NCBI GenBank assembly: GCA_001772335.1
Contig: METM01000020.1
Span: 17,795-81,794 of the forward strand
Direction of reading: 5' to 3'
From: a candidate division WOR-1 bacterium RIFCSPHIGHO2_01_FULL_53_15
GTDB lineage: Bacteria; Margulisbacteria; WOR-1; O2-12-FULL-45-9; XYB2-FULL-48-7
DNA: 64,000 nucleotides
In this document: positions 3,067 through 16,642 of the stretch, one piece after another
How the letters are laid out: the number at the start of each line of letters is the position of its first letter
How positions within the stretch are numbered: the stretch's first letter is position 1
Notes under the pieces: generated by a model
Told to the model about the DNA's origin: nothing
Databases searched by the model: none
Seen by the model: only the letters and a program-made list of their open reading frames with translations
Program-made: the position numbers and the translations under genes

Positions 3067-3732
3067 CTATTTCGGGGCGTGCTTGATGACTTTGCCTTCC
3101 ACCATATAGACGACGTCTTCGCCGATATTGGTCGTGTGGTCGGCGATCCGCTCGAGATGCCTGGCGATCAGGATGAGCGGCAGAGCTCGGGAAATGGTGG
3201 ACGGGTCCTTGGTCATGATCCCTACCAATTCGTCATGGATCAGGTCGCGATAGCCGTCGGCTTTTTCCTCATCTGCCCAGAGTCCCCGCGCCATCGCCGC
3301 ATCGCGTTTGACGAAAGAGTCAAGCGCCCGGTGGACCATCTTTTCCGCCAGTTCCGCCATTTTGGGAATGTCTTCGAGCGGCTTGAGGAGCGGCTGTTTG
3401 GAGAGCTCGAAGGCGCGCAAAGCGATATCGACCGCCAGGTCGCCGATCCGTTCGATGTCCGAGGCGATGCGCATGCCGGTCGTAATAAAGCGCAAGTCGA
3501 TCGCCATCGGCTGCTGCGTCGCCAGGAGCTCCAGGCAGAGCTCATCGATCTCCAGCTCGAGCTTGTCGATCCCGTCATCTAATTTAATGACCTGATCGGC
3601 CATTTTGGCATCCGACTTCTTGAGCGCCTCGACCGAATTGAAAATGCTCTTCTCGACCATTCCCCCCATTTTTAAGATGAGGTCGTTCAACTTCGCCAGC
3701 TCCTTTTGAAAGTGCTCCCTCTGTTCTATCAT
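3067..3732 (-). CDS. phoU: Phosphate transport system regulator PhoU
   Basis: 221 aa with two PhoU repeats (DxxIDxLE, ERIGDLAVDIA, ERIADHTTNI). It lies at the 3' end of the pst operon. Confidence 0.9.
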   Translation of the reverse strand: MIEQREHFQKELAKLNDLILKMGGMVEKSIFNSVEALKKSDAKMADQVIKLDDGIDKLELEIDELCLELLATQQPMAIDLRFITTGMRIASDIERIGDLAVDIALRAFELSKQPLLKPLEDIPKMAELAEKMVHRALDSFVKRDAAMARGLWADEEKADGYRDLIHDELVGIMTKDPSTISRALPLILIARHLERIADHTTNIGEDVVYMVEGKVIKHAPK

Positions 3733-4481
3733 TAACCAAACCTCCCTGTGATGTAATCCTCCGTCCGTTTATCAGCCGGGGTCGTGAAGATCTTTTTCGT
3801 GTCGGCAAACTCGACCAGCTCGCCCAGGAGCAGATAGCCGCAATCGTCGGAGATGCGCGCCGCCTGCTGCATGTTGTGCGTCACGATAACGATAGTATAC
3901 TGCTTTTTCAGTTCGATCATCAACTCTTCGATTTTCATGGTCGCAAAGGGGTCGAGCGCCGAACAGGGCTCATCCATCAGCAGGACCTCCGGCGTGACGG
4001 ACAAAAGCCGCGCGATGCAGAGGCGCTGCTGCTGCTCGAGCGAGAGGCCGAGGGCGTTCATTGAGAGCTTGTCTTTTAGCTCATCGAACAGGAGCACGGC
4101 CGACAAACTCTTCTCCGCCGCCTCGGCCAAAACCTGTTTGTTCTTTTCGCCGTGGACGCGCAGGCCATAGACGACATTCTCGAAGACCGAGAGAGGGAAG
4201 GGATTAGGGCGTTGAAAGACCATGCCGATCCTTTTGCGCAGGGTGATCAGGTCAATTTCATGGTCAAGGATCTCCTTGCCCTCGAAATTGACGCTGCCCG
4301 ACATCCTGACACCCTCGATCAGGTCGTTCATCCGGTTAAAGACGCGCAGGAGCGTCGACTTGCCGCAGCCCGACGGCCCGATCAGCGCGGTGATCCGGTT
4401 GCGCTCGATCGCCAGGTCAACATCGATCAGCGCTTGGAATGCGCCATACCATAGGTTCAATTTGTTCGTTTTGATGATCAT
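3732..4481 (-). CDS. pstB: Phosphate ABC transporter ATP-binding protein PstB (copy 2). Walker A, Q-loop and H-loop are canonical, but the signature motif is degenerate.
   Basis: It carries [30 protein letters not shown] and VTHNMQQ. The signature reads [13 protein letters not shown] instead of [13 protein letters not shown]. Confidence 0.9.
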
Positions 4482-5230
4482 TATCCGAATCTCCCGGTAA
4501 TATAATCTTCAGTGCGCTTGTCTTTAGGCACGGTAAAGACCTGTTTCGTCTCGCCGATCTCGATCATCTCGCCCATCAGGAAGAAAGCTGTCCGGTTGGA
4601 GACGCGGGCCGACTGCTTGACGTTGTTGGTTACGAGTATCTGGGTGTAATTTTTCTTGAGCTCCTGCATCGCCTCTTCGACCTTCAGCGTGGAAATAGGG
4701 TCAAGCCCCGAGCACGGCTCATCATAGAGGATAACCTCCGGCTCGACCGCCAACGTCCGCGCAATGCAGAGCCGCTGCTGCTGCCCGCCGGAGAGTTTAA
4801 AGGCATTCGTCTGCAGACGATCTTTGACTTCATCCCAGATAGCGGCGGCTTTCAGCGATTTCTCAACGATTTCAGAGAGCCGCGCCCGGTTTTTTATGCC
4901 ATGCATTCTCGGCCCGTAGGCAATGTTGTCAAAAATGGAAAGAGGGAAAGGAAGAGGAAGCGCAAAAACGATTCCGACCCTTTTTCTCACCGAGTGTTTA
5001 TCGATCTCTTTTATTCTCACTCCGTCCAGAAGGATTTCTCCACTGGTTCTGGAATTTGGATAAAGTTCGTTCAAACGGTTCAGGGCCTTCAGAAACGACG
5101 TCTTGCCGCTGTTGGAAGGGCCGATGATTCCAAGGATATCATGCTCCTTGACCTCCAGCGACAAGTTCTTGACCGCGTGGACGCCCTCAAAGAAGACGTT
5201 CAGGTTCTTAACTTCGATTTTGTTCACCAC
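4481..5230 (-). CDS. pstB: PstB paralog (copy 1). The signature motif is intact but the Q-loop and H-loop are substituted.
   Basis: It carries [22 protein letters not shown] and [11 protein letters not shown]. The Q-loop reads [10 protein letters not shown] (Q to A) and the H-loop reads VTNNVKQ (H to N). Confidence 0.85.
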
Positions 5231-6072
5231 GTCTTCCTCTTTCTAAACCGCGCCCGGATATAAGCAGCGATAACGTTCAGAATAAAGATCATGCCGACCA
5301 GGACGAGAACCGTGCCGTATTGGATCTTGACGCTGACGCCCGGCACCTGGGTTGAGAGAACATATATATGGTACGGCAAAGCCATGGCCTGGTCATAGAC
5401 CGATTGCGGCAGGCGGGGCAGGTAAAAAGCCGCCACCGTAAAGAGGATCGGCGCCGTCTCGCCGGCGGCGCGAGAGAGCTCCAGAATGGTTCCGGTCATG
5501 ATCCCCGGCACGGCATTGGGCAGGACAACGTGGCGCACCGTCTGCCAGCGCGAAGCGCCCAGCGAATAGCTGACTTCACGAAACGAACGAGGCACGGCGC
5601 CGAGCGCCTCGCGGGTGGCGGTGATGATCACCGGCAAGCCCTCGATCGCCAGCGTCAGGGAACCGGCCAGAATTGACGAGCCAAAATTGAGAAAAATGAC
5701 AAAAAGTCCCAGGCCGAACAGGCCGTAGACGATCGAGGGAACGCCGGCCAGATTAATGATGGCCAGCTCGATCAGCCGCGTCAGCCGGCTTTTTGGCGCG
5801 TATTCATTCAGATAGATCGCCGCCAGGATCCCCAGCGGGATGGAAAAAACTGCCGCGCCCAGCACCAGGTAAGTTGTGCCAACGATAGCCGGGAAAATGC
5901 CGCCCGCCCGCATCCCCTCGCGCGGCATACTAAAAATAAATTCCAGCGAAAGACCGGGTAAGCCGCGGAACAGGACTAGCAGGACGATTAGCGCTACCGG
6001 GATGACGATCAGGATCGTGGCTGCTTGCAGACAGGCAAAAGCTATTCGCTGGGTACGATTGGTGTCTCTCAT
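5224..6072 (-). CDS. pstA: Phosphate ABC transporter permease PstA
   Basis: 282 aa polytopic membrane protein with an EAA-like loop (ALGAVPRSFREVSYSLGASRWQT). Its position in the operon fits. Confidence 0.9.
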   Translation of the reverse strand: MRDTNRTQRIAFACLQAATILIVIPVALIVLLVLFRGLPGLSLEFIFSMPREGMRAGGIFPAIVGTTYLVLGAAVFSIPLGILAAIYLNEYAPKSRLTRLIELAIINLAGVPSIVYGLFGLGLFVIFLNFGSSILAGSLTLAIEGLPVIITATREALGAVPRSFREVSYSLGASRWQTVRHVVLPNAVPGIMTGTILELSRAAGETAPILFTVAAFYLPRLPQSVYDQAMALPYHIYVLSTQVPGVSVKIQYGTVLVLVGMIFILNVIAAYIRARFRKRKTW

Positions 6073-6938
6073 CTGGCCGCCTTCCTGTGCAAAAAGAGAT
6101 CGGCCAGCAGGTTAATGACGAAGCTGATAATAAAAAGAACAATGCCGATGGCGAACAGTGCGTAATAATGCTCACTGCCGGAGACCGCCTCCCCCATCTC
6201 GGCGGCGATCGTCGCCGTCAGCGTCCTGACCGGCTGGAGTATGCTCGTCGGCAGGACCGCCGCGTTGCCGGTGATCATGAGGACCGCCATCGTCTCGCCA
6301 ATCACCCGTCCTATACCAAGCATGACGGCCGCCAGGATGCCGGACGAGGCGGCCGGCAGGACAACGCGATAAATAGTCTGCCAGTGGGTGGCCCCCAGCG
6401 CCAACGACCCCTCGCGATAGTTCTTGGGTACGGAGACGATGGCGTCTTCGATGATCGAAACGATCGTCGGCATTGCCATGAAGGCCAGCATGATCGAGCC
6501 GGCCAGCGCGGTCAGCCCGCTCGACAGGTGAAAAACCGATTTTAAAAAGGGCGCCAGGGTCACAATACCGATAAAACCGAGAACGATGCTGGGAAAGGCG
6601 GCCAGAAGCTCAATACCCGATTTGAGGATATCGCGCAATTTGGGCGGCGCCACCTCGGCCACGTAAATGGCCGACGCCAGGCCCAGCGGCACCGCGATCA
6701 CGATCGCCCCCAGTGTTACCAGGAGCGATCCCAGAAATAGCGGCAGGATACCGAAACGCGGCGGATCGGAGATTGGGTACCAGTTCTTGCCAAAAAGAAA
6801 ACCGGTTAAGCTTTCGGTCTGGAAGAGCGCCAGACCTTCCTTGAGCAAAAAGAAAAAGATCAGCACCACGAAAATGATCGAGGCGATCCCCGAAAGGAAG
6901 ATCGCCCGCTCGATCAGGAATTCGAAGGCTCTTTTCAC
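6069..6938 (-). CDS. pstC: Phosphate ABC transporter permease PstC
   Basis: 289 aa polytopic membrane protein with SLALGATHWQT. It overlaps pstA by 4 nt. Confidence 0.9.
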   Translation of the reverse strand: MKRAFEFLIERAIFLSGIASIIFVVLIFFFLLKEGLALFQTESLTGFLFGKNWYPISDPPRFGILPLFLGSLLVTLGAIVIAVPLGLASAIYVAEVAPPKLRDILKSGIELLAAFPSIVLGFIGIVTLAPFLKSVFHLSSGLTALAGSIMLAFMAMPTIVSIIEDAIVSVPKNYREGSLALGATHWQTIYRVVLPAASSGILAAVMLGIGRVIGETMAVLMITGNAAVLPTSILQPVRTLTATIAAEMGEAVSGSEHYYALFAIGIVLFIISFVINLLADLFLHRKAAR

Positions 6939-7786
6939 TTGATAGGCACAAAATCCATTTTGAGCACGACCTTTTGGCCAGCGTCGCTTAAGATATAATC
7001 AATGAAGGCCCTGGCTTCGCCCGACGGCTCGCCGTTGGTGTAAAAGAGAAGCGAGCGGGAGATCGGATACTGGCCGCTGGTCACGGTCTTAACCGAAGGA
7101 ACAACATAGGCCGAGCCGCTGTTTTTCGCCACCGCCAGCGCTTTCTCCTGCGCCGTCAAATAACCGAGACCGACATAGCCGATCGCCGATGTGTTGGCTT
7201 TAACCTCTTCGATGATCGCCTGTGAAGAAGGCATCATCAGGACAGGGGGGGCAAATTCATTGGGGTTCTTTTTTTGAGCTAGCTTGACCACATGTTCAAG
7301 GAAGAATACGTGTGTGCCGGAGTTCCTCTCGCGCGAGAGGGCGACGATCTTTGAGTCCGTCCCGCCCATCTCTTTCCAGTTCTTGATCTTGCCAGTGTAG
7401 ATATCCGAGAGCTGTTGGATCGTCAATTTGCCGACCGGGTTGGCTGGATTGACGACGATCGTGATACCGTCATTGGCCACGTGAATCTCCTGCGGGGATA
7501 TTCCTCTCTTTTTGGCCATGGCAATTTCTTTCGGTTCGATATTCCTTGATGACTCGGCAATGTCGGTCGTTCCCTGGATCATCGCCGCGATCCCGGTCCC
7601 TGAGCCGCCGCCGGTCACTGCGATCGAAATCGCCGGGTTAAGTTTCATAAAATCCTCGGCCCAGGCCTGGCCAAGGTTCACCATCGTGTCCGAGCCCTTG
7701 ATTTGAAGAGCTTTTTTCCCGCCGCCGCAGCCAGCAAGGGCAAAGGCAAGTAAGGATACCGCGAACAGAAACGCAATTTTTTTCAT
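6935..7786 (-). CDS. pstS: Phosphate-binding lipoprotein PstS
   Basis: The signal peptide plus lipobox reads MKKIAFLFAVSLLAFALAGCGGG. The rest is a PBP-like fold with SGTGIAAMIQGTTDIA. Confidence 0.9.
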   Translation of the reverse strand: MKKIAFLFAVSLLAFALAGCGGGKKALQIKGSDTMVNLGQAWAEDFMKLNPAISIAVTGGGSGTGIAAMIQGTTDIAESSRNIEPKEIAMAKKRGISPQEIHVANDGITIVVNPANPVGKLTIQQLSDIYTGKIKNWKEMGGTDSKIVALSRERNSGTHVFFLEHVVKLAQKKNPNEFAPPVLMMPSSQAIIEEVKANTSAIGYVGLGYLTAQEKALAVAKNSGSAYVVPSVKTVTSGQYPISRSLLFYTNGEPSGEARAFIDYILSDAGQKVVLKMDFVPIK

Positions 7787-7793
7787 GCTTCTA

Positions 7794-7846
7794 TTATCGG
7801 CGATGAGAATGAAGGTTTGATGACAGAAATGTTAAAAGCATGTAAA
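7794..7846 (-). promoter_or_regulatory. pstS promoter. Pho-box-like heptamer direct repeats sit at 11-bp spacing, with a -10 (GATAAT) 7 nt before the ATG.
   Basis: The minus strand reads TTTACAT-gctt-TTAACAT-tt-CTGTCAT-caaa-CCTTCAT...GATAAT-agaagc-ATG. The CTGTCAT-type repeats resemble the PhoB binding consensus. Confidence 0.45.
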
Positions 7847-8857
7847 TTATCTTGATGGAAAAACCAGCGTAAACTTCGAGCCCCGGCCGACTTCGCTCTC
7901 CACCCTGACCGAACCGCCGTGGATCTCCATGATGTGCTTGACGATCGAGAGGCCAAGTCCGGTCCCACCCTGGTCGCGCGAACGGGCCTTGTCGACCCGG
8001 TAGAAGCGCTCAAAAAGCCGTGGCAGGTGCTCGGCCGAAATGCCTGCTCCCTGATCCTTGACGCTGACTTCCATAGTTTTCTCTGCCTTGCGGCAGCCGA
8101 TCTCCACTTTGCCGCCAGCCGGCGAATAATTGACGGCGTTATCGACCAGGTTGAGCAGGGCACGATAAATGAGGTTCGCGTCCCCGAACAGGCGGCAGGG
8201 CGCCGGCCGCTCGATCATTATTGCTTTTGTCTTGAGCTTGCCGGCGAGCGTCTCGATCACTCTGTCAATCTCCTGGCCGAGCTCGACTTCGGCGAACGGT
8301 TCCAGCCCTCTCCTGGCTTCTAAGCTTGAGAGCTGGAGAAGGTCGTCGATCAGGGCGGAGAGGTTCTGTGTATTCTTATCTATCTTCTGGAGAAATTCAC
8401 GGTTGTGCGCCTGATCATTGATCGCTCCGTCGATCAGTGTCTCGACATAGCCCCTGATGGCGGTCAGCGGTGTCTTGAGCTCGTGGGAAACATTGGCGAC
8501 GAATTCGGAGCGCAGGTTTTCGAGCTTCTTGATCTCGCTGATGTCGTGGAAGATCAGCGCGATGACGGCCGGCTCGCCCTCTTCGGTTTCGATCAAGCTC
8601 ACCGAGCAGGAAAATATCTTCTCCTCGGGATAGATGACCCTGATCTCTTTCTCAAGCGGCGTATCCGCCTCTCTGGCCGCCGCGGCCAGCTCGGCTAATT
8701 CCGGCAGGCGTATTACCTCGAGTAGGCGCTTGCCGATGACGTCGCCGCGCGAGAGCGAAAAATGATCCAGGAATGATTGATTGGAGTAGATTATCCCGTC
8801 GGCGTCATCGATGACGATCGCGCCGTCGCGCATACCCGATAAGATCGCCTCAAACAT
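7847..8857 (-). CDS. phoR: Soluble sensor histidine kinase (PAS, HisKA, HATPase_c), PhoR-like
   Basis: The H-box is SHELKTPLTAIRGY, and N/G1/G2 boxes are present (DQGAGI, GGTGLGLSIV). There is no TM segment. The likely ATG overlaps the phoB stop (ATGTTTGA). Confidence 0.8.
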   Translation of the reverse strand: MFEAILSGMRDGAIVIDDADGIIYSNQSFLDHFSLSRGDVIGKRLLEVIRLPELAELAAAAREADTPLEKEIRVIYPEEKIFSCSVSLIETEEGEPAVIALIFHDISEIKKLENLRSEFVANVSHELKTPLTAIRGYVETLIDGAINDQAHNREFLQKIDKNTQNLSALIDDLLQLSSLEARRGLEPFAEVELGQEIDRVIETLAGKLKTKAIMIERPAPCRLFGDANLIYRALLNLVDNAVNYSPAGGKVEIGCRKAEKTMEVSVKDQGAGISAEHLPRLFERFYRVDKARSRDQGGTGLGLSIVKHIMEIHGGSVRVESEVGRGSKFTLVFPSR

Positions 8858-9537
8858 GGAATTTATAACCCACGCCGCGCAGGGTCTCGAGATGCCGTCC
8901 GGTTTTGCCCAGTTTATCGCGCAGGCGCCGTATGTGGACATCGACCGTGCGCGTTTCGATCGCCACGTCGATCCCCCAGACCCGGTCAAGGAGCTGTTCG
9001 CGCGAGAAGACCCGCTCTTTGTTCTCGGCCAGATAGTGAAGGAGCTGGAATTCCTTGGCCGTCAGATCGATCTCTTTTCCGGCGGACAACACGATGTGCC
9101 GGTCGGAATCGATCTCCAGGTCTCTGAACTTGAGGGTCGCCTTGGCCGGCTGGCCAACAATTGTTGGCTCATAGCGGCGCAGGATCGTCTTGACGCGGGC
9201 GATCAATTCCTTGACGCTGAACGGCTTTGTAATGTAATCGTCCGCCCCCACTTCCAGGCCGACGATCTTGTCCGTTTCCGACCCTTTAGCAGTTAGCATG
9301 ATGACCGGGATGCCGGATGTTTTGGGATTGCGTTTGAGCCGCCGGCAGACCTCCAGGCCATCCAGCCCCGGCAGCATAAGGTCAAGAATGATGAGTGAAG
9401 GGATCTTGCCCTCCGCCTGCCTTATGCCCTCATTGCCATCATGGGCCTTCATAACCTTCATTCCCTCTTTCTTGAGGTTGTATTCCAGGGTTTCGACGAT
9501 GTCTTTCTCGTCTTCAATAATGAGGATATCAGGCATA
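8850..9537 (-). CDS. phoB: OmpR/PhoB-family response regulator
   Basis: The receiver domain reads MPDILIIEDE...ILDLMLPGLDG...LTAKG. It is followed by a winged-helix domain with VWG and TRTVDVHIRRLR. Confidence 0.85.
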
Positions 9538-9558
9538 TAGAAATTATAGCTTAAAAAT

Positions 9559-9567
9559 GGTAAAATA
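9559..9567 (+). promoter_or_regulatory. Extended -10 element (TGGTAAAAT) 11 nt upstream of the hydG ATG, in the 40-bp divergent phoB/hydG intergenic region
   Basis: Sequence motif only. There is no Shine-Dalgarno sequence before the ATG at 9578. Confidence 0.3.
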
Positions 9568-9577
9568 TACATAAAGT

Positions 9578-10978
9578 ATGCCCTCATTTATCGACGAAAG
9601 TTTGATCCATGCTCTCCTCAAAGAACCAAAGTTCGCCTCGCCCAAGACAGCCGAAAATATCATACAGAAAGCGCTCATGCTCAAAGGGCTCTCCCTTGAA
9701 GAGACTGCCATCTTGCTCAACTGCCAGGACAAGCGGGTCCTCGCCAAATTATTCCGCGCTGCCCGAAAAGTCAAAGAAGCCATCTACGGCCGGCGCCTCG
9801 TCATCTTCGCGCCGCTCTATATCTCAAATTTTTGCGTCAATAACTGTCTCTATTGCGGTTTTCGCCGGGGGAACCTCGCGCTGGCCAGAAAACGGCTGAC
9901 GCTCGATGAAATAAGGGGAGAAGTCCGGGTCCTCGAAGAACAAGGGCACAAACGGATCCTGCTCGAGACGGGCGAAGAGCCGAAGGCCGGCATCGGTTTC
10001 CTGGAAAGAGCGATCAGGGCTATCTACTCGACAAAATACGGGCGCGGCGAGATCAGGCGCCTCAACGTCAACGCGCCGGCCATGTCGGTTGCGAATTTCC
10101 GCCGTTTGAAAAAGTGCGGGCTCGGAACATATCAGCTTTTTCAGGAGACCTATCACCGCGAAACCTACGAAAAAGTCCATCCCTCAGGACCAAAATCAGA
10201 TTTCATCTATCATTTATTCGCCATGCACCGGGCGCAGAAAGCGGGGATCGATGATGTGGGAATCGGCGTGCTCTTTGGTTTATACGACTATAAGTTCGAA
10301 GTTTTAGCCCTCCTCTCCCATGCCCTGGAGCTGGAGCAGCGGTTCGGCGTCGGCCCGCACACCATCTCGGTGCCGAGGATCGAGCCGGCTTCGAACGCCC
10401 CAATTGCCGGCAATCCCCCATACCCCATACCCGATACCGATTTTAAGAAGCTCGTCGCCATCCTGCGCCTGGCCGTCCCCTACACCGGGCTTATCCTCTC
10501 GACGCGCGAATCGGCCAAAATGAGGGATGAAGTGATCGGTCTCGGCATCTCGCAGATCAGCGCGGGATCAAAAACCGTCCCCGGCGGCTACAAAGCGTCG
10601 GAGAATAGGAATAGGAAGAGGAAGAAGGTTAGCGGCCAGTTTTCGATCAGCGACAACCGCTCGCTCGCCGAAGTGATCCGGGATATTTCAAAACGTGGTT
10701 ATTCGCCGAGCTTCTGCACCGCCTGCTACCGGCTGGGGCGCGTCGGTGCGGATTTCATGGATATGGCCAAGCCGGGGTTAATAAAAAACTTCTGTTTGCC
10801 CAATTCACTGCTGACCTATAAAGAATATCTGTTGGATTACGGGGATAAAGCGGCAAAGAAATTAGGAGAGAAAGTCATTAAGCGGCATTTAAAAGACATT
10901 ACAAACCGCAAGATCAAAGAAAAAACAATTGATAAACTGGCCGAACTGGAAACTGGCAACCGGGACCTGTACTTCTAG
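9578..10978 (+). CDS. hydG: HydG-type radical-SAM tyrosine lyase (the CO/CN-generating [FeFe]-hydrogenase maturase family)
   Basis: 466 aa. The N-terminal cluster motif is FAPLYISNFCVNNCLYCGF. A ThiH-like core follows. The HydG-specific C-terminal motif CTAC-x22-C (CX2CX22C) lies at FCTACYRLGRVGADFMDMAKPGLIKNFC. Confidence 0.8.
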   Translation: MPSFIDESLIHALLKEPKFASPKTAENIIQKALMLKGLSLEETAILLNCQDKRVLAKLFRAARKVKEAIYGRRLVIFAPLYISNFCVNNCLYCGFRRGNLALARKRLTLDEIRGEVRVLEEQGHKRILLETGEEPKAGIGFLERAIRAIYSTKYGRGEIRRLNVNAPAMSVANFRRLKKCGLGTYQLFQETYHRETYEKVHPSGPKSDFIYHLFAMHRAQKAGIDDVGIGVLFGLYDYKFEVLALLSHALELEQRFGVGPHTISVPRIEPASNAPIAGNPPYPIPDTDFKKLVAILRLAVPYTGLILSTRESAKMRDEVIGLGISQISAGSKTVPGGYKASENRNRKRKKVSGQFSISDNRSLAEVIRDISKRGYSPSFCTACYRLGRVGADFMDMAKPGLIKNFCLPNSLLTYKEYLLDYGDKAAKKLGEKVIKRHLKDITNRKIKEKTIDKLAELETGNRDLYF

Positions 10979-11010: not shown

Positions 11011-11286
11011 TCAGGCAGGCACTAATTCTCTTCGTCTGGTTAATTTTTTCATGCCTTCTGGGCTTAAGATCTTTAGCAACGGCACGTTAAATTGCTTGGC
11101 AAAAGTGTTCAATTCCTTGCCTGACACATGCACGGGGTTAATAAACTCAAACCCAAGAACTTTATTACGTTTGTCCAAATCGACATATATTTCATTTTCA
11201 GAATCCAGCTCAACTGTTTTACTAACCTTGCCTTCACTAACTTGAATATAAAGAAGCCCTTCCGACGCATCTAATGAAATTTGCAT
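11011..11286 (-). CDS. DUF2283-family small protein, a putative antitoxin-like partner
   Basis: 91 aa, reading MQISLDASEGLLYIQVSEGKVSKTVELDSENEIYVDLDKRNKVLGFEF, the DUF2283 pattern. It lies in an AT-rich island. Confidence 0.5.
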   Translation of the reverse strand: MQISLDASEGLLYIQVSEGKVSKTVELDSENEIYVDLDKRNKVLGFEFINPVHVSGKELNTFAKQFNVPLLKILSPEGMKKLTRRRELVPA

Positions 11287-11301
11287 CTTAACCCCTCCTT
11301 G

Positions 11302-11523
11302 TTATGCCCAATATGAAGTAATGATGAGAATAGAGCTGGCTTTCCGTAATTCGTAAACGACCCAAAGCAATTTACCATTCGTATTCCCGCATATCTTATG
11401 TCTCCCTTTTTTCTTTGCCGGGACAGAAGTAGTTTTGTTCTGTAGGGCGATTTTAATCTCGCTGATCTTAATTTTTCTTGAGCTTAATCTCTGCTTAGCA
11501 TGTGGAGTTAAACTGATTTTCAC
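11302..11523 (-). CDS. DUF4258-family small protein, a putative toxin-like partner
   Basis: 73 aa, with HAKQRLSSRKI, GKLLWVVYE and ILIITSYW, typical of DUF4258 paired with DUF2283. Confidence 0.5.
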   Translation of the reverse strand: MKISLTPHAKQRLSSRKIKISEIKIALQNKTTSVPAKKKGRHKICGNTNGKLLWVVYELRKASSILIITSYWA

Positions 11524-11567: not shown

Positions 11568-12029
11568 TTAGCTATGCACCAGCGAAACTAATTGCATGCT
11601 CGTTTCTTTTAGTTTCAGCGAGATGATCTCCGCTAATTTGTTCATGACGAGGTAGCCCCGCCGGCAGTCGTTCTTGAAGATCTTCTCGACCAGCTCATCC
11701 GCGTTGAGCGTGATCAGCTTGACGTTGTCCAGACACCTGGCGTCGGAGGCAAAGACCTTGGGCTTGGCGAGCGACGGATAGCCGAACATCTTCCCTTTAT
11801 TTTCAGTGTAAACCACGGCCTTTTTATTAGGCCCGATCTCGATTTCGATCGCGACGCGGCCTTCGAGCACGAGATAGATCTTTTCGGCCTTCGCCCCTTC
11901 TTTATAAACGTAGTCGCCCCCCTTGAATTCCTCGACCCTGGAGAGAGCGGCGATATCGCCCAGCTCGTCCAGTTTCAGGAATTCGAACAGGTTCATCCCT
12001 TTGAGTATTTCAGGCGTAACTGCCGGCAT
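11568..12029 (-). CDS. Cyclic-nucleotide-binding domain protein
   Basis: The cNMP-binding beta-barrel pattern is present (FKGGDYVYKEGAKAEKIYLVLEGRV). It is the last gene of the hydrogenase operon. Confidence 0.6.
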   Translation of the reverse strand: MPAVTPEILKGMNLFEFLKLDELGDIAALSRVEEFKGGDYVYKEGAKAEKIYLVLEGRVAIEIEIGPNKKAVVYTENKGKMFGYPSLAKPKVFASDARCLDNVKLITLNADELVEKIFKNDCRRGYLVMNKLAEIISLKLKETSMQLVSLVHS

Positions 12030-12474
12030 AATTGACCTCCTGTTTGATCTTCTCGACAATTTCTGGCATCTTTGCCTCGATCTCCGAACTCAATGACTCC
12101 AAATGCAGAACTTGCTTCGGCTGAACCCCGATGATTATAACATGGCCAAAATCTTCGTTTAAGCTTTGGCCAAGCTTAAGAACCTCGAACAGGCCAAACT
12201 CGTGCAAGGAAAAGTTCCGACTCACCGGCAGCCGCAAAAGTTCTTCGGCGCTGAATCTCGCGATGGCGCCCGGCGCTTTCCCCATCTCGACCGCGTCGAT
12301 CACCACCACTTTTGGAAAGCCTTTGAGTGTTTCAAAGAGCGACAAACCTCCGGTCGCGCCGTTGACCACTTCAACTTCGGGGCCAAGGTCGCCCAATCTA
12401 TCAAGCACCAAAACCCCGATCCCATCATCCCCTAACAAAGTGTTGCCCAGCCCGAGCACCAGGGTTTTAGCCAT
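12010..12474 (-). CDS. hycI: Hydrogenase maturation endopeptidase (HycI/HoxW family)
   Basis: The protein reads LVLGLGNTLLGDDGIGVLV...VVVIDAV, the protease signature. Confidence 0.8.
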   Translation of the reverse strand: MAKTLVLGLGNTLLGDDGIGVLVLDRLGDLGPEVEVVNGATGGLSLFETLKGFPKVVVIDAVEMGKAPGAIARFSAEELLRLPVSRNFSLHEFGLFEVLKLGQSLNEDFGHVIIIGVQPKQVLHLESLSSEIEAKMPEIVEKIKQEVNYAGSYA

Positions 12475-13799
12475 CAGACAAAATCGACTTTGAGCATGTG
12501 GACCGAGCAGGAGATGCAGGGGTCATACGCCCGGACAAGCATTTCCAGAAGCAGGGTTATCTCTTCCTGCGGCCGGTCGAGGATCGTCGGCACGAGCGCC
12601 CGCATGTCGTCCTCAATATTGGCCAGGTTCTGGCCGGTCGGGATGACGCAATTCGCCCACGAGAGGAGGCCGTCGTCATCGATGCGGTATTCGTGGAAGA
12701 GGACGCCGCGCGGCACTTCAACGGCACCCACCCCCCAGCATTTCTTGACCGGCGGCAGTTTGGCCGACCAGCCGGCGATGGTCTGGCGCTCGACCGTCTC
12801 GTCCTTGAGCCCGCGGCGCAGCAGCTCCTCGATCAAATAGATCATCCGCTCGATATTGTGGACCGATTCGACGACCTGCGCCGCCGAGATCAGGTAAGGA
12901 TTATAGTTGGGCGCGGCAAGGCCGAGCTTTTGCGCCGCGGCTTTCGCGGCCGGCATCAGCTGGTCAGAGTTGATATTGAAACGTGAAAGAGCGCCCACCA
13001 TGTACGGCCGGAACGGTCCTTTGGCTTGTTTGGCGGTCGAATGGAGCACCACTTCTTCTTTGACCTTGTTCTTATAATCCCGGTGCCTGGTCTCGCCGGT
13101 TTCCGTAGAATGAATGATCCCGTCGTAATAAGCGTACTCGTCGGGATGTTTGAGGGCGACATAATCGGTCTTTCTCTCAAAAGCAGGGAATTTCAACGAG
13201 GCGAAAAGGTCAAGCGTTGGTGGGACATCATCGGAGAGCATCGTCTTGAGCTGTTTGAGCGCGTCCCGCAGCTGCGCTTCCGTTGGAATATGAGTGAAAC
13301 CGTCGACGACCATCGAGATCGGATGCGGGTGCCGCCCGGCAATGATCGTTACGATATCATCGGCTAATTTCTTCATGCGCAGGGCGCGCTTGACGACATC
13401 GGGATGGCTGGCCGCTAACGGAATGACGCTCGGCACGCTGAAGAAATCAGGTGCGACGAGAAAATAATAGTGCAGGACGTGTGATTGCATGATCTCGGCT
13501 TCCAGCACGGCTTTTCTTAAGAGCAGCGTTTGCTCCGACGGCTCGATGCCGAGAGCGTCCTCGAGCGCCCGCAGTGAGGCGGTCGTGTGGCCGACGGCGC
13601 AGATGCCGCAGATGCGGCTGGTGATCTGGGGCGCTTCGGGAAAGCGCCGGCCGCGCAGCATCGCCTCAAAAAAGCGCGGCGACTCGACGATCTGCAGTTC
13701 CACTTTTTTGAGCTCGCCGCTCTGCACGTCGATGACGATATTGCCGTGGCCTTCGACGCGAGCCACGTGATGGACATTTATATTAATGTCTTTTGACAC
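12474..13799 (-). CDS. hydA: [NiFe]-hydrogenase large (alpha) subunit, group 3b sulfhydrogenase-like
   Basis: The N-terminal motif is RICGICAVGH. The C-terminal motif is DPCISCSVH, followed by a cleavable MLKVDFV tail. Confidence 0.9.
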   Translation of the reverse strand: MSKDININVHHVARVEGHGNIVIDVQSGELKKVELQIVESPRFFEAMLRGRRFPEAPQITSRICGICAVGHTTASLRALEDALGIEPSEQTLLLRKAVLEAEIMQSHVLHYYFLVAPDFFSVPSVIPLAASHPDVVKRALRMKKLADDIVTIIAGRHPHPISMVVDGFTHIPTEAQLRDALKQLKTMLSDDVPPTLDLFASLKFPAFERKTDYVALKHPDEYAYYDGIIHSTETGETRHRDYKNKVKEEVVLHSTAKQAKGPFRPYMVGALSRFNINSDQLMPAAKAAAQKLGLAAPNYNPYLISAAQVVESVHNIERMIYLIEELLRRGLKDETVERQTIAGWSAKLPPVKKCWGVGAVEVPRGVLFHEYRIDDDGLLSWANCVIPTGQNLANIEDDMRALVPTILDRPQEEITLLLEMLVRAYDPCISCSVHMLKVDFV

Positions 13800-14551
13800 T
13801 ACTTGCCAACCTCCATCATCCCATTTAACATGCGGTAGAATTTCAAACTCTCCTCAACAGTCAAACCGGCGCCGGAGAGGGTCTCCTGATGGGCGTTGAG
13901 GTTCGGCTCCTCGACCAGCCCGCGGCAGCCGATGCAGGCGTTGCCGTAGCTCGGGCAGTGGGCGCTGCAACCGGCGCGGGTGACAGGGCCCAGGCAGGTG
14001 ATCGGCCTCTCTTTGTGGAACGTGCAGACGTTCCCCTTCATCTTGCACTGGACGCAGACCGGGAAGTTCGGTATATACGGTTTCTTCCCCTGCAGGATCG
14101 CCGTCACGATCTCGACAAACTCTTCGCCGTCGCGGTTCGGGGGACAGCCGCGCGAATAATAATCGACCTTGACGACGGCGTCGATCGGCTGGGCCAGGAT
14201 CGAATCGAAATTGGCGACCTTATCGCCGTAAACGGATTTTTTGATCTCGAACTGGTTGTCGAAGTTCCTGATGCAATTGATGCCGCCGATATGGGCGCAG
14301 GCGCCGAGCGCGATCAGGATTTTGGCCTGTTGTCTGATCGCGCGGATCTCCTCGATCTCGTGGACGGTGGAGAGGGCGCCTTCGACGATCGCCACGTCGT
14401 AATCCTCGCCCTTGTAGCTTGAGGCCTCGCGGAAGTTGACGACCTCAACGGCGCCGAGGAGATCGAAGAGCTTGTCGGCCATCGAGAGGACGACGAGCTG
14501 GCAGCCCTCGCAGCTCGTGAAACTGAAAAACCCGACTTTCGGTTTACTCAT
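13799..14551 (-). CDS. hydD: [NiFe]-hydrogenase small (delta) subunit
   Basis: It shows the FTSCEGCQ proximal-cluster motif and additional Cys clusters. Its start/stop (ATGA) overlaps the large-subunit gene. Confidence 0.85.
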   Translation of the reverse strand: MSKPKVGFFSFTSCEGCQLVVLSMADKLFDLLGAVEVVNFREASSYKGEDYDVAIVEGALSTVHEIEEIRAIRQQAKILIALGACAHIGGINCIRNFDNQFEIKKSVYGDKVANFDSILAQPIDAVVKVDYYSRGCPPNRDGEEFVEIVTAILQGKKPYIPNFPVCVQCKMKGNVCTFHKERPITCLGPVTRAGCSAHCPSYGNACIGCRGLVEEPNLNAHQETLSGAGLTVEESLKFYRMLNGMMEVGK

Positions 14552-14552
14552 A

Positions 14553-15374
14553 TTAAATACTTTCCGGTATTTTCTTGAGCTCGGCGTAGTTAAAGACCGG
14601 TCCGTCCTGGCAGACGTAGATCTCGTTCATCTGGCAGTGGCCGCACTTGCCGACGCCGCACTTCATCTTGCGTTCAAGCGACATCCAGATATTGGCATCC
14701 GCCAGCCGCCGGGCCTTGAGCTCCTTGATCACGAAACGGTACATGACCGGCGGGCCGACGATGACCGCCTGGGTCTTTTTTTCGTCGATCTCGACGCGGG
14801 GGATGAGCGTCGTGATGACGCCGACGTCGCCCTGCCAGTTCTCATCGCCCAGGTCAACCGTGATCATGCACTCAACAGTGCCGCCGCACTCCCACGATTT
14901 CAGTTCCCCCTTGAACAAGAGATCGCGCGGCGTCTTACAGCCATAGAGGACATTGATCTTGCCGTATTCCGGCCGCCGATTGAGGACTTCAAGGATCAGC
15001 GACCGCAGAGGGACCAGCCCGATCCCGCCCGCGATGAAGAGGATATCCTTGCCCTTGAACCTGGCGATGTCAAAACCGTTGCCGAACGGGCCGCGGATGC
15101 CGATCTTGTCGCCGACTTTCTTCTCGAGTAAGGCGTTGGTAACGTTGCCCACCTTTCTGACGCAGAGCTCGAAAGTCGGCTTGTCGGGCTCCGGCGCGGA
15201 AGAGATGGAGATCGGCGCTTCACCGATACCAAAGATCGAGACCTCGACGAACTGGCCCGGTTTGTGGCCGAGCGTTTTTCTCTCCGTCAACTCAAGCTCA
15301 AAAAAGGTCTCGAGCGGCGTCTGGGGGATGACTTTTTTAATGACGGCCAATTCCGGCGTATAAAGCGTTTTCAT
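14553..15374 (-). CDS. hydG: Sulfhydrogenase gamma subunit-like oxidoreductase with FAD/NAD(P)-binding and a [2Fe-2S] domain
   Basis: A ferredoxin-reductase-like fold is followed by a C-terminal CGVGKCGHCQ motif. The likely start MKTLYTPEL overlaps the beta-subunit stop (ATGA). Confidence 0.8.
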   Translation of the reverse strand: MKTLYTPELAVIKKVIPQTPLETFFELELTERKTLGHKPGQFVEVSIFGIGEAPISISSAPEPDKPTFELCVRKVGNVTNALLEKKVGDKIGIRGPFGNGFDIARFKGKDILFIAGGIGLVPLRSLILEVLNRRPEYGKINVLYGCKTPRDLLFKGELKSWECGGTVECMITVDLGDENWQGDVGVITTLIPRVEIDEKKTQAVIVGPPVMYRFVIKELKARRLADANIWMSLERKMKCGVGKCGHCQMNEIYVCQDGPVFNYAELKKIPESI

Positions 15375-16408
15375 ATTTTCCTCGAATAAATCTCGTTGGC
15401 GATCTCTAAGGGACTGACGATCTTTGTCAGGCAGGCCTTGATGCAGCGGCCGCAGCCGGTGCAGAACGACTCGCCCCATTTATCGAAGAGGTAATTGAGC
15501 TTGCGGTAGGTGCGGTGGCGCAGGCGGTGCGAGCGGTCTTCGCGGAAGTTCTCGCCCGAAGCGACCTTGGCGAATTCTTCGGTCATACAGCCGTCCCAGA
15601 CGCGGCTGCGCACTCCCTTGACCAAACTGACGTGCATGTAATCCTGCACGTCAAAACAATAACAGGTTGGGCAGACCATGTTGCACGAACCGCAGCCGTA
15701 GCAGAGTTTGCCGTGCTCCTCCCAGACCGGATGATCAACGTTCGCTTTCATCAATTTCGGCAGATCCTGATATTTCGGCAGGAGTTTTTTCTCTTTCTTG
15801 TCAAAGATTAAGTTCCGCTTTTTCCTGACGGCCGAAAGTTTCTTCTTATCGGCGGCCTTCGCCGCCACCGCCCCCTCGATCAGCGCCTCGCCTTTCGGTG
15901 TGGCCGCCTCGGCAGAGAATGAATTCCCGATATCGGTCAAAAAGAGATCGAAACGGCCTTTGGGATCGAGGCCGCCCAGGCGCAGGCAGATCGCCTCCGG
16001 CGAACATGGAGTGAGGCAGTCGACGCCGACAAGCGTCATCGCCTTGCGTTTTGCGGGGTAATTCGAGTCGATGTTCTTTTCCGCCCAGACGCGGTCCATC
16101 TGGCCGATAGCATTGAGATCGCAGGGATGGACACCGAAGAGTATCCTCTCTTTGACGGTATTGAGCCCGGTTATTTTGACCTCATCGTTGCTGAATTCAT
16201 AGGCCAGCAGATCCTCTGACTGCGGATATAAGAATTGTTTCGGCGGGATGACGGTTTGCGGCGCGCCCCAGACGATCTGGTCGGGTGAGCTGAGCGGGGC
16301 AAAGGCGGTAAAGTTCTCATGGGCGACCGGGGCGATGACCTCGTTCGTCTTGATCAGGTTTTCGATCAGATCATTGAGCCGCTCTTTTTTGACGATATAG
16401 TTCTTCAT
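15371..16408 (-). CDS. hydB: Sulfhydrogenase beta subunit-like Fe-S protein (AsrA/HydB family)
   Basis: 345 aa with two Cys clusters (CYGCGSCNMVCPTCYC and CTGCGRCIKAC). Confidence 0.8.
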   Translation of the reverse strand: MKNYIVKKERLNDLIENLIKTNEVIAPVAHENFTAFAPLSSPDQIVWGAPQTVIPPKQFLYPQSEDLLAYEFSNDEVKITGLNTVKERILFGVHPCDLNAIGQMDRVWAEKNIDSNYPAKRKAMTLVGVDCLTPCSPEAICLRLGGLDPKGRFDLFLTDIGNSFSAEAATPKGEALIEGAVAAKAADKKKLSAVRKKRNLIFDKKEKKLLPKYQDLPKLMKANVDHPVWEEHGKLCYGCGSCNMVCPTCYCFDVQDYMHVSLVKGVRSRVWDGCMTEEFAKVASGENFREDRSHRLRHRTYRKLNYLFDKWGESFCTGCGRCIKACLTKIVSPLEIANEIYSRKI

Positions 16409-16642
16409 TCACTCTACGCGGATCGACTCGAGCACCAGCTCTTCGCCGCTCGTCGAATCGATCTCCAGCCGGGCGGCTTCGGCCTTGGTTCCCCTCGCCG
16501 CTTCCCTGAAGAGATATTCTATATCATGCGGCCGGGCGTGGCAATTCTCGCCGACCTTCAGACGGACGGCTTCGACTCTTCTCCCCTCACAACGGGCCAG
16601 AACTTCCCTCAAAACGTCAGCGACCAGCTTTAAGCCATGCAT
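16409..16642 (-). CDS. HypA-like N-terminal nickel-binding domain protein lacking the zinc-finger C-terminal domain
   Basis: 77 aa, reading MHGLKLVADVLREVLARCEGRRVEAVRLKVGENCHARPHDIEYLFREAARGTKAEAARLEI, which parallels the HypA N-domain (MHE...). It stops without any CxxC pair. Its stop overlaps the hydB start. Confidence 0.45.
   Translation of the reverse strand: MHGLKLVADVLREVLARCEGRRVEAVRLKVGENCHARPHDIEYLFREAARGTKAEAARLEIDSTSGEELVLESIRVE

Follow-up and report, generated by a model that had tools for sequence, protein, structure and literature searches.

Introduction

On the current view, HypA-F mature every [NiFe] hydrogenase, HypX being an addition in aerobes, and HydG and HydE are maturases reserved for [FeFe] enzymes. 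In the Hyp system, HypC, HypD, HypE and HypF assemble the Fe(CN)2CO unit from carbamoyl phosphate and a CO source, and the hyp genes are often unlinked from the hydrogenase structural genes. HypX, the aerobic CO-ligand synthase of O2-tolerant [NiFe] enzymes, is a formyl-THF/formyl-CoA decarbonylase. HydG, HydE and HydF mature the [FeFe] H-cluster, and HcgA/HmdB, which belongs to FeGP cofactor biosynthesis of the [Fe]-hydrogenase Hmd, is a case of HydG/HydE-related radical SAM enzymes recruited to a non-[FeFe] class.

Here we analyse a window of 64 kb (64,000 nucleotides, the whole stretch of DNA studied) from a candidate division WOR-1 bacterium, where a hydG gene lies beside a [NiFe] hydrogenase operon that begins with a gene fusion of HypC to a HydE-type protein. 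From the sequences, we propose that HydG and this HypC-HydE* fusion probably form a two-protein module serving [NiFe] hydrogenases, of group 3b here and of group 4 in relatives, and not [FeFe] hydrogenases, and that the module most likely supplies the [NiFe] large subunits with a mononuclear Fe-CO/CN unit made from tyrosine.

The module shares with [FeFe] H-cluster maturation a HydG that is a full member of its family (radical SAM and auxiliary motifs, presumed dangler-iron histidine) and a HydE* with the HydE fold, the radical SAM cysteines and both M224 and M291 (TmHydE numbering throughout); the two proteins are encoded side by side or as a fusion, an arrangement familiar from many hydEG clusters. 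Unlike that system, it has no HydF or HydA nearby and none reported in the lineage, its HydE* is without R54/T134/R155 and is joined to a [NiFe]-type chaperone, and its genes lie within [NiFe] operons. With HypC/D/E/F assembly it has in common the client, a standard [NiFe] large subunit with extension, protease and HypA-like protein, and a HypC-type domain whose N-terminus holds the essential cysteine; however, this domain and a radical SAM enzyme form one polypeptide, its conserved His is replaced by Gln, HypD, HypE and HypF were not seen in the fusion neighbourhoods by motif search, and the CO and CN would come from tyrosine via HydG. The module resembles HypX as a lineage-specific accessory carbonyl route that would be added to the core machinery, but its radical SAM enzymes are oxygen-sensitive and belong to anaerobes, while HypX works under oxic conditions and is unrelated to them in sequence and chemistry. 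HcgA/HmdB offers the parallel of recruitment outside the [FeFe] class; here, in contrast, the proteins fall far below the HmdB cutoff, the hmd/hcg context is absent, and the host is a bacterium of a lineage reported to have no hydrogenases but [NiFe] ones.

A canonical HydG beside a group 3b [NiFe] operon

The open reading frame at 9578-10978 on the plus strand encodes a radical SAM tyrosine lyase of 466 aa with a C-terminal auxiliary [4Fe-4S]/dangler-Fe domain. A radical SAM motif CX3CX2C (FCVNNCLYCGF) starts at residue 86 and the auxiliary-cluster motif CX2CX22C (CTAC-x22-C; CTACYRLGRVGADFMDMAKPGLIKNFC) at residue 380. The product scores 539.2 bits with the NCBIfam HydG model TIGR03955, above the cutoff of 312.15, and 295 bits with the ThiH model TIGR02351, below its cutoff of 380. 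It aligns end to end with the crystal structure of T. italicus HydG (4WCX; 570 bits), while the solved ThiH (377 aa) aligns to residues 23-379 only, so that the C-terminal domain is missing from ThiH. The LSHALE segment lies opposite LYHANH of 4WCX, His on His, and this histidine is taken to be the dangler-Fe ligand, which in TiHydG is presumably His265. By sequence, then, the product is a full-length, canonical and genuine HydG. The initial annotation, which had read the protein as HydG-type from CVNNCLYCGF and CTAC-x22-C and had set it apart from ThiH by the C-terminal motif, was correct on both points. Identity as ThiH, CofH or another tyrosine lyase was rejected from the model scores together with the presence of the C-terminal domain. 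No thi genes were found near hydG in the window annotation, and the HmdB model of NCBIfam matches weakly (26 bits for HydG and 66 bits for the fusion, cutoff 321). NCBI annotates this HydG as an [FeFe] maturase.

The neighbouring operon runs on the minus strand; its last gene lies 590 bp from the hydG stop and its large-subunit gene 1.5 kb. It encodes the four subunits of a group 3b [NiFe] hydrogenase: the Fe-S beta subunit (15371-16408; Pfam Fer4_22; NCBIfam sulfhydrogenase HydB/ShyB, 181/172 bits), the FAD/NAD(P)-binding gamma subunit of 273 aa (14553-15374; AsrB 257 bits as best match, PRK08345, named 'cytochrome-c3 hydrogenase subunit gamma', 251 bits, and ShyC 204 bits), the small (delta) subunit (13799-14551; NCBIfam sulfhydrogenase HydD 198 bits, Pfam Oxidored_q6) and the large (alpha) subunit (12474-13799; NCBIfam ShyA 278 bits). 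P. furiosus-type sulfhydrogenase subunits are among the best matches for all four, every score being below the equivalog cutoff. The large subunit carries RICGICAVGH, the C-terminal DPCISCSVH and a cleavable extension after it, and therefore requires an Fe-CO/CN unit and a protease; the maturation endopeptidase is encoded by the next gene (12010-12474; TIGR00072, 123 bits, cutoff 47), and a small protein that consists of a cNMP-binding domain only (11568-11996; Pfam cNMP_binding) closes the cluster. These four subunits and the protease bear out the earlier claim of a complete group 3b hydrogenase 1.5 kb away on the opposite strand.

Two further genes stand at the head of the operon. The first encodes the HypC-HydE* fusion of 423 aa (16643-17914), and the second a HypA-like protein of 77 aa (16409-16642; 35.6 bits with Pfam HypA against a cutoff of 28.9, matching positions 1-68 of the 112 in the profile), which has the N-terminal nickel-binding domain only, the zinc-finger domain being missing. 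The initial annotation had interpreted the locus as a HydG encoded next to a [NiFe] and not an [FeFe] hydrogenase; this interpretation is supported, as both of the refuting outcomes that it had named turned out in its favour, the one on hydA and hydF by a published statement on the lineage and the one on [NiFe] linkage by the neighbourhoods of orthologs (both below). It gave only part of the picture, however: both head genes were overlooked, and the decisive evidence comes from one of them, the HypC-HydE* fusion.

None of HydA, HydF, HypB, HypD, HypE and HypF was found among the sizeable ORFs annotated across the whole window, which extends to all of it the earlier remark that no HydA or HydF is visible nearby. 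Genome-wide absence of HydA and HydF in the source lineage has been reported, in the form of a published statement about MAGs that Saganbacteria are without [FeFe] hydrogenases, and group 3b was described in the same work as their sole cytoplasmic hydrogenase (Carnevali et al., PMC6349859). The large subunit, OGB89834.1, appears as a label in one hydrogenase tree-label file of that study.

The fusion joins a HypC-type domain to a HydE-type barrel

The fusion (TIGR00074, TIGR03956; PF01455 and PF04055) comprises a HypC-type chaperone domain with an N-terminal Cys2 in residues 1 to ~80 and, in residues ~95-423, a HydE-type radical SAM TIM barrel whose product site is altered. Its N-terminus reads MCYAIPG and its radical SAM motif CRHDCVYC. 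An N-terminal MC(L/Y)(A/G)(I/V)PG with Cys2 is the functional hallmark of HypC-family chaperones. The HypC model TIGR00074 matches residues 1-75 with 44.5 bits (cutoff 48), a PF01455 match is recorded as well, and TkHypC (2Z1C) matches residues 1-67 with E=4e-8 to 2e-9. The HydE model TIGR03956 gives 232.1 bits, below its cutoff of 254.6, the next family being PylB with 139 bits; the alignment with TmHydE reaches 226 bits at 39-40% identity. An AF2 model of the fusion (pLDDT 82.9, pTM 0.85) matched TmHydE entries in Foldseek with a TMt of 0.86-0.91 and an rmsd of 2.0 A for the best matches, so HydE* has the predicted TIM-barrel fold of HydE.

The HypC domain departs from the solved HypCs at one site. 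Gln44 (in YAQGG) lies opposite the His of 2Z1C, 3VYR, 3D3R and 2OT2, and both Gln44 and C2 are invariant in a 57-sequence alignment (A1). The conserved histidine of HypC is the residue that we take to be His51 in E. coli; since Gln44 replaces it, canonical HypC behaviour may not hold for this domain.

The proposed dimerisation site of HydE is lost across the fusion family

In HydE, M224 and M291 carry the Fe(CO)2(CN)S intermediate (PMC11826987). A polar triad, R54, T134 and R155, makes contact with the CN ligands at S3, the site where the Fe2 dimer is proposed to form, and according to a review a one-residue mutation in this site significantly impairs [FeFe] maturation (these and the other residue roles: PMC11826987, PMC10114646). 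We compared 129 fusions with 50 plain HydEs encoded adjacent to HydG. The radical SAM cysteines C63/C67/C70 are kept in all 129 fusions, M224 and M291 are Met in all 129, and T269, V105 and L157 are conserved as well. At the polar site the two groups separate: R54 is His in 129/129 fusions and Arg in 50/50 plain HydEs, T134 is Phe in 127/129 and Thr in 49/50, and R155 is Gly or Ala in 128/129 and Arg in 50/50. A set of 150 representatives gave the same division, with H-F/Y/C-G/A in all HypC-fused proteins (one fragment being gapped at the third position) and RTR in 92 plain ones. HydG residues specific to the fusion-associated class were searched for at thresholds of 80%/10% and none was found; specialisation is therefore invisible in HydG, which fully resembles the [FeFe]-type protein.

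The fusion mostly tracks [NiFe] and not [FeFe] genes in several phyla

Fusion proteins of this kind make up a large family found in several phyla; members occur in Saganbacteria, Margulisbacteria, Scalindua, some Omnitrophota, Nitrospirae and some archaeal MAGs. The best 120 clusters (at least 64% identity) all cover most of the fusion query, nearly all with both Pfam domains, and ~25 representatives at 50% identity align with it from residue 1. Triple fusions HypC-HydE-HydG also occur, with 943 aa in the Nitrospirae locus L016, 906 aa in P0249 and 881 aa in P0257; an assembly artefact as the source of the first was excluded by the other two, which are independent. In a neighbour-joining tree the fusion-associated HydGs form one clade. 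A clade exclusive to the fusion was ruled out, as its Micrarchaeota members sit with plain HydE and HydF.

The neighbourhoods of orthologs show the recurrent linkage with [NiFe] genes that the initial annotation had proposed to look for. Among the closest relatives, L146 and L130 have hydG embedded in the 3b operon, L101 has it at the 3' end of that operon, and L099 repeats the layout of the window. The Nitrospirae locus L016 has an equivalent cluster, all on one strand; it, an archaeon (L013) and Scalindua (L018) have a 3b-like [NiFe] large subunit in the HydG locus, and in L007 and L008 HydG adjoins group 4 [NiFe] clusters. A [NiFe] large subunit is encoded in 35 of the 43 (81%) metagenomic fusion loci of at least 12 kb. 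When fusion loci were compared with the other loci, those of plain HydE, HydF/HydA motifs occurred in 0/11 vs 42/69 (Fisher p=1e-4) and a [NiFe] large subunit in 4/11 vs 2/69 (Fisher p=0.003), both p-values being optimistic since the loci share phylogeny and are not independent. The large subunit in the long loci is usually accompanied by its protease and a HypA-like gene. A HypA-like gene adjacent to the fusion is found also in L098, L099, L101, L130, L135 and L146.

These data bear on the reading that HydG is an ordinary dispersed [FeFe] maturase, with HydA and HydF encoded elsewhere in the genome or on unbinned contigs and the [NiFe] operon close by chance. Its canonical sequence without class-specific residues and its NCBI label fit such a role, the genome is a MAG that is ~96% complete (Saganbacteria HO1B, METO00000000), and there are organisms that combine both systems: a minority of loci carry the fusion plus [FeFe] genes a few kb off, namely genuine HydF, HydG and a radical SAM protein in L155 and HydA in L166. 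Against it, the sole nearby HydE-type gene is fused to HypC and is without the R54/T134/R155 site, in which the change of one residue significantly impairs [FeFe] maturation according to the review cited above, HydF and HydA motifs are confined to the other HydE loci in the comparison, relatives have hydG inside [NiFe] operons, and triple fusions with HypC exist. We regard a dispersed [FeFe] maturase as very improbable.

The neighbourhoods also bear on the nature of the client. The module could make an organometallic iron cofactor, or perform sulfur/iron chemistry, for a client other than the [NiFe] large subunit, with no more than a generic OB-fold adaptor role for the HypC-like domain. Candidate clients would be the beta subunit (Fer4_22), the molybdopterin protein that goes with the group 4 clusters, or some further protein. 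The divergence of the HypC domain (His to Gln, and the score below the TIGR00074 cutoff) would agree with this, and beta/gamma-like genes track the fusion more consistently than any hydrogenase class does, with beta-like matches in most loci and with molybdopterin and group 4 genes alongside in L087 and L091. Moreover, in the closed Saganbacteria genome RX5A hydG is clustered with radical SAM, ParA/NUBPL-ferredoxin and DUF2099 genes, and that cluster holds no hydrogenase genes. However, the invariant MCYAIPG with Cys2 is the mark of a HypC chaperone, the long loci mostly encode a [NiFe] large subunit, usually together with protease and HypA-like gene, and we know of no other CO/CN-bearing client in bacteria. 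This reading seems improbable to us. It does count against a [NiFe]-serving module that in some genomes (L088, L128) the fusion lies far from hydG, and a hydrogenase is absent within 10 kb.

A candidate tyrosine-derived route to the [NiFe] site

Under the preferred reading, a module that serves [NiFe] hydrogenases, four steps can be envisaged. HydG, as its canonical sequence suggests, would cleave tyrosine and assemble on its dangler iron a synthon of the Fe(Cys)(CO)2(CN) type. HydE* would bind the synthon, remove the cysteine backbone by 5'-dAdo radical chemistry and hold a mononuclear Fe-CO/CN-S species on M224/M291, as the conservation of the radical SAM cysteines and of both methionines would allow. 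Because HydE* is without the R54/T134/R155 site at which canonical HydE is proposed to hold and join two units, we propose that no dimer forms and that the iron unit is handed to Cys2 of the attached HypC domain. By analogy with canonical HypC, this domain would then bind the apo large subunit and insert the Fe-CO/CN unit, after which the truncated HypA-like protein and the endopeptidase, by analogy with HypA and the protease, would finish nickel insertion and C-terminal processing. HydG yields 2 CO and 1 CN and the [NiFe] site holds 1 CO and 2 CN, so an extra ligand-exchange step has to be assumed.

How much of the Hyp machinery the module would replace is a separate matter. In its boldest form, HydG and HypC-HydE* would constitute a complete pathway from tyrosine, independent of HypD, HypE and HypF, for the whole Fe-carbonyl-cyanide unit, with direct hand-over to the large subunit; on the sequence evidence we offer this tentatively, as conceivable and somewhat doubtful. 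Motif regular expressions detected no verified HypD, HypE or HypF in the 64-kb window or in ~1.25 Mb around ~100 fusion genes, and the same expressions recovered all three in a Smithella locus (L054). HypE motif hits in L139-L141 and a HypF hit in L169 were dismissed as they are actually Fic-domain proteins and NapC-type cytochrome c, and a HypF-sized ORF of 753 aa in L063 is a response-regulator hybrid amid chemotaxis genes.

Alternatively, the module would act as a donor of CO, or of CO and Fe, to canonical HypD/HypE/HypF encoded elsewhere, and so provide the anaerobic CO step of that machinery, with the CN taken from carbamoyl phosphate. HypC normally partners HypD and Cys2 is kept in the fusion; the mismatch between a product with 2 CO and 1 CN and Fe(CN)2CO is easier to accommodate if HypE adds the CN, and where the CO comes from under anaerobic conditions is recognised as an open question in the literature (PMC12134894). 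The replacement of the conserved HypC histidine by Gln speaks against a donor role, as does the lack of verified HypD, HypE and HypF around the fusions, which weighs little since Hyp genes are often unlinked. We judge the donor role rather unlikely; the estimate is a share of the probability given to the [NiFe]-serving module as a whole, which spans both the CO-donor and the full-replacement variants, and is not to be added to it.

A full-text literature search found no published account of HydG or HydE serving a [NiFe] hydrogenase, or of a HypC fusion, and a survey of [NiFe] neighbourhoods (PMC12727194) gives generic clusters only. As a conserved module present in several phyla, HydG and HypC-HydE* are a concrete candidate for a tyrosine-derived route of CO, perhaps also of CN, to the [NiFe] site, and would inform the evolutionary relation of the two hydrogenase maturation systems. 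If the full HypDEF-independent pathway is true, it would be a second, evolutionarily independent solution to [NiFe] cofactor biosynthesis and perhaps a living link that joins the [FeFe] and [NiFe] maturation systems. The module would account for 'orphan' HydG/HydE annotations in genomes without HydA, would flag systematic mis-annotation as '[FeFe] hydrogenase maturase', 'biotin synthase' or '2-iminoacetate synthase', and would give a compact gene set for the heterologous production of group 3b and group 4 hydrogenases.

The cNMP-binding protein at the end of the operon possibly has a regulatory role; its gene lies 3' of the protease gene also in L016, L098, L099, L101, L130, L135 and L146.

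HydG and the adjacent [NiFe] operon

The protein encoded at 9578-10978 (+) is 466 aa long and contains the motifs FCVNNCLYCGF and CTAC-x22-C. Its score of 539 bits with the NCBIfam HydG model (cutoff 312), against 295 with the ThiH model (cutoff 380), bears out the HydG identity proposed in the initial annotation. The Thermoanaerobacter italicus HydG crystal structure 4WCX aligns to residues 3-466 with 570 bits, taking in the C-terminal cluster domain and an aligned histidine that we take to be the dangler-iron ligand; the alignment of solved ThiH (377 aa) ends at residue 379 and, as claimed, the CTAC-x22-C domain has no ThiH counterpart. By sequence, the protein is fully a member of the HydG family.

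The initial annotation was also right in placing a complete group 3b-type [NiFe] hydrogenase close to HydG: at a distance of 0.6-1.5 kb the minus strand encodes four subunits and an endopeptidase, with sulfhydrogenase (group 3b) subunits among the best matches. Neither HydA nor HydF, whose local absence it had reported, nor HypB, HypD, HypE or HypF was found among all sizeable ORFs annotated in the 64 kb. Saganbacteria are reported to lack [FeFe] hydrogenases and to have group 3b as their only cytoplasmic hydrogenase (PMC6349859). Having noticed HydG and the operon, it missed the two genes at the operon head. The first encodes a 423-aa protein matching both HypC and HydE (16643-17914, -), and directly after it comes a HypA-like protein of 77 aa that consists of the nickel-binding N-domain only (16409-16642, -). 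The last gene, after the hydrogenase protease, encodes a protein with only a cNMP-binding domain (11568-11996, -); such proteins (142-163 aa, without a DNA-binding domain) also occur in the compared loci L016, L098, L099, L101, L130, L135 and L146.

HypC-HydE fusions form a widespread family

Residues 1-75 of the fusion match HypC/HybG/HupF, beginning with the hallmark MCYAIPG (Thermococcus kodakarensis HypC, E=4e-8; 2e-9 for the HypC domain alone), and a HydE-like radical SAM enzyme with CRHDCVYC, here called HydE*, occupies residues 95-423 (226 bits between the fusion and Thermotoga maritima HydE, TmHydE). The structure predicted by AlphaFold from 57 sequences of the family is a confident one (pLDDT 82.9, pTM 0.85), and its barrel superposes on TmHydE entries with TM-scores of 0.86-0.91 and about 2 Å rmsd for the best matches. 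The HypC and HydE parts belong only partly to their known families.

The fusion itself is a genuine and widespread family. The best 120 clusters (at least 64% identity), mostly from Margulisbacteria and Saganbacteria, all span most of the query, nearly all with both Pfam domains. When 1.84 billion representatives were searched exhaustively, some 25 clusters at 50% identity aligned from residue 1 and were separated from plain HydEs by a score gap. In loci retrieved with HydG as the query, the gene directly preceding hydG was a fusion of 47-53% identity in Omnitrophota, Planctomycetia/Scalindua, Nitrospirae, Pseudomonadota and archaeal MAGs. Three independent proteins, those of L016 (943 aa), P0249 (906 aa) and P0257 (881 aa), are HypC-HydE-HydG triple fusions with CX2CX22C intact; this Rosetta-stone evidence argues that HypC, HydE and HydG act together.

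The fusion mostly accompanies [NiFe] rather than [FeFe] genes

We scanned loci for HydF and the three H-cluster motifs, a scan that correctly finds its targets in Smithella, Syntrophaceae, Desulfofundulus, Bacillota and Micrarchaeota loci. Matches occurred in 0/11 loci with the fusion and 42/69 without it (Fisher p=1e-4), while a [NiFe] large subunit was present in 4/11 and 2/69, respectively (p=0.003), the loci of both comparisons not being phylogenetically independent. In the two non-fusion exceptions, L007 and L008 (Margulisiibacteriota), HydG lies beside a group 4 cluster. A metagenome scan added 80 fusion loci, about 1 Mb in total; of the 43 measuring at least 12 kb, a [NiFe] large subunit is encoded in 35 (24 3b-like, 11 group 4-like) and HydG in 18.

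The linkage of HydG to [NiFe] genes raised in the initial annotation recurs, with HydG accompanying a 3b operon in the closest relatives (L146, L130, L101, L099) and a 3b-like set in L016. The order on one strand in L146 and L130 is HypA-like, fusion, HydG, beta, gamma, small, large, protease and cNMP protein; L101 has the same cluster with HydG at its 3' end, L099 is laid out identically to the window, and in L016 (Nitrospirae) the whole set lies on one strand. In the archaeal L013/L089 a pair of [NiFe] genes flanks the fusion and HydG on each side, and HypA is encoded close by. In L087 (11489-21269) and L091 (13136-21269), from Margulis/Saganbacteria, the fusion is upstream of a group 4 membrane-bound [NiFe] cluster containing beta/gamma-like, molybdopterin oxidoreductase (formate-dehydrogenase-like) and ferredoxin genes, preceded in L091 by a Rex-like gene; the architecture resembles formate hydrogenlyase, and the 3b-type beta/gamma genes are shared. 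In a neighbor-joining tree every fusion-associated HydG falls in one clade with the window HydG, and no class-specific residues were found between fusion-associated and other HydGs.

The association has exceptions. Two metagenomic loci carry genuine [FeFe] genes a few kb from a 3b operon with fusion: L155 (406-4473) has HydF, a radical SAM gene and a HydG of 44% identity, and L166 (13328-15139) has a 603-aa HydA, so some organisms have both maturation systems side by side. Micrarchaeota HydGs of the fusion-associated clade adjoin plain HydE and HydF, and in some genomes no hydrogenase was found in the neighbourhood of the fusion (L088, L128). No verified HypD, HypE or HypF was found in any fusion neighbourhood examined, the apparent matches being false on inspection; Hyp genes are often unlinked from hydrogenase genes.

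HydE* has lost three polar S3-site residues

Residues with roles assigned in TmHydE (PMC11826987, PMC10114646) were scored in 129 fusions and 50 plain HydEs neighbouring HydG. The radical SAM cysteines, the Fe-carrier methionines M224 and M291 (PMC11826987), T269, V105 and L157 are kept in both. In contrast, R54 is H in 129/129 fusions (R in 50/50 plain HydEs), T134 is F in 127/129 (T in 49/50) and R155 is G or A in 128/129 (R in 50/50). At the S3 site, the proposed place where two Fe(I) units dimerise, these three polar residues are in contact with the cyanides, and a review reports that a one-residue mutation in this site markedly impairs [FeFe] maturation. Among 150 diverse representatives, all HypC-fused proteins are H-F/Y/C-G/A, one fragment having a gap in place of the third residue, and R-T-R is found in 92 plain HydEs. 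A few unfused proteins of the H/F/G type also occur (P0264, P0267, P0269, P0271, P0301); these may be HydE* with a separate HypC, or fragments. In the HypC domain Cys2 is retained, and the histidine common to all solved HypCs is replaced by Gln44, invariant in the 57-sequence family alignment.

A proposed chimeric maturation module

From the observed gene content, linkage, fusions and residue patterns we infer the chemistry; the best-supported reading is that HydG and HypC-HydE* build a unit for the [NiFe] large subunit. HydG would make its usual tyrosine-derived Fe-CO/CN synthon, which HydE* would process through its usual radical chemistry. Since HydE* is without the dimerisation site, a mononuclear unit would be released in this scheme and handed to Cys2 of its own HypC domain, which would place it in the large subunit, the HypA-like protein and protease completing maturation. 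The module may take the place of HypDEF or act in addition to it. The scheme gives no explanation for the clash between the Fe(CO)2(CN) of HydG and the Fe(CO)(CN)2 of the [NiFe] site.

We rate the system as a chimeric hydrogenase maturation module, with parts from known families in a new combination. No description of the HydG/HypC-HydE/[NiFe] combination was found in the full-text literature searched, and public annotations read '[FeFe] hydrogenase maturase HydG', 'radical SAM protein', 'biotin synthase', 'HypC family chaperone' or 'hypothetical protein'. A 2025 review lists HypA-F (plus HypX) as the [NiFe] cofactor machinery, names the origin of CO under anaerobic conditions as the most pressing open question of its biosynthesis, and makes no mention of HydG, radical SAM or tyrosine (PMC12134894). 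[FeFe]-type maturases serving [NiFe] enzymes would be unexpected to specialists, and the module makes the CO-source question open to experiment, at least in these lineages.

Other genomic observations

The Saganbacteria genome RX5A, assembled as a single scaffold, has the fusion at 1.285 Mb (L128), and the only HydG recovered from it, with intact CVNNCLYC and CTAC-x22-C, is about 0.5 Mb away (L021:7069-14797; MEUD01000001.1, about 766-773 kb). Its co-directional cluster encodes two small radical SAM proteins, a pyridine-nucleotide disulfide oxidoreductase, DUF2099 and three ParA/NUBPL-type P-loop proteins, two with ferredoxin inserts; no HydE, HydF, HydA or [NiFe] genes were found within 10 kb of this HydG. 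The cluster may represent another HydG-dependent system or a setting for iron delivery. The ferrous iron transporter FeoB is encoded upstream (L021:1216-2958, +) and, in an archaeal MAG, no more than a few kb from the module (L012:6033-7952, -), which could be coincidental or could provide iron for the dangler-Fe chemistry.

Between HydG and the window operon lies a likely toxin-antitoxin-like pair, DUF2283 (91 aa) and DUF4258 (73 aa) (11011-11523, -), in a low-GC patch (0.49 vs about 0.56). Because it was undetected in any related locus searched, it may be a recent insertion that split HydG from the cluster. Directly upstream of hydG and divergent from it is a complete phosphate-uptake regulon (PstS, PstC, PstA, PstB x2, PhoU and a PhoR/PhoB-like two-component system; 3067-9587, -). 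Its PhoB-like ORF, as listed, extends 10 bp into the start of hydG; a functional tie of the regulon to hydG is not apparent. The 502-aa ORF at 22847-24355 (+), which overlaps both a Ser/Thr kinase gene (21832-23145, -) and a further ORF on the minus strand, is probably spurious, an antisense reading frame in GC-rich DNA. The window large subunit (OGB89834.1) is named in a tree-label file of PMC6349859, and a genome with exact protein matches to the window (GCA_001771345.1, sequence METO01000014.1) comprises 1.51 Mb in 34 scaffolds and is about 96% complete.
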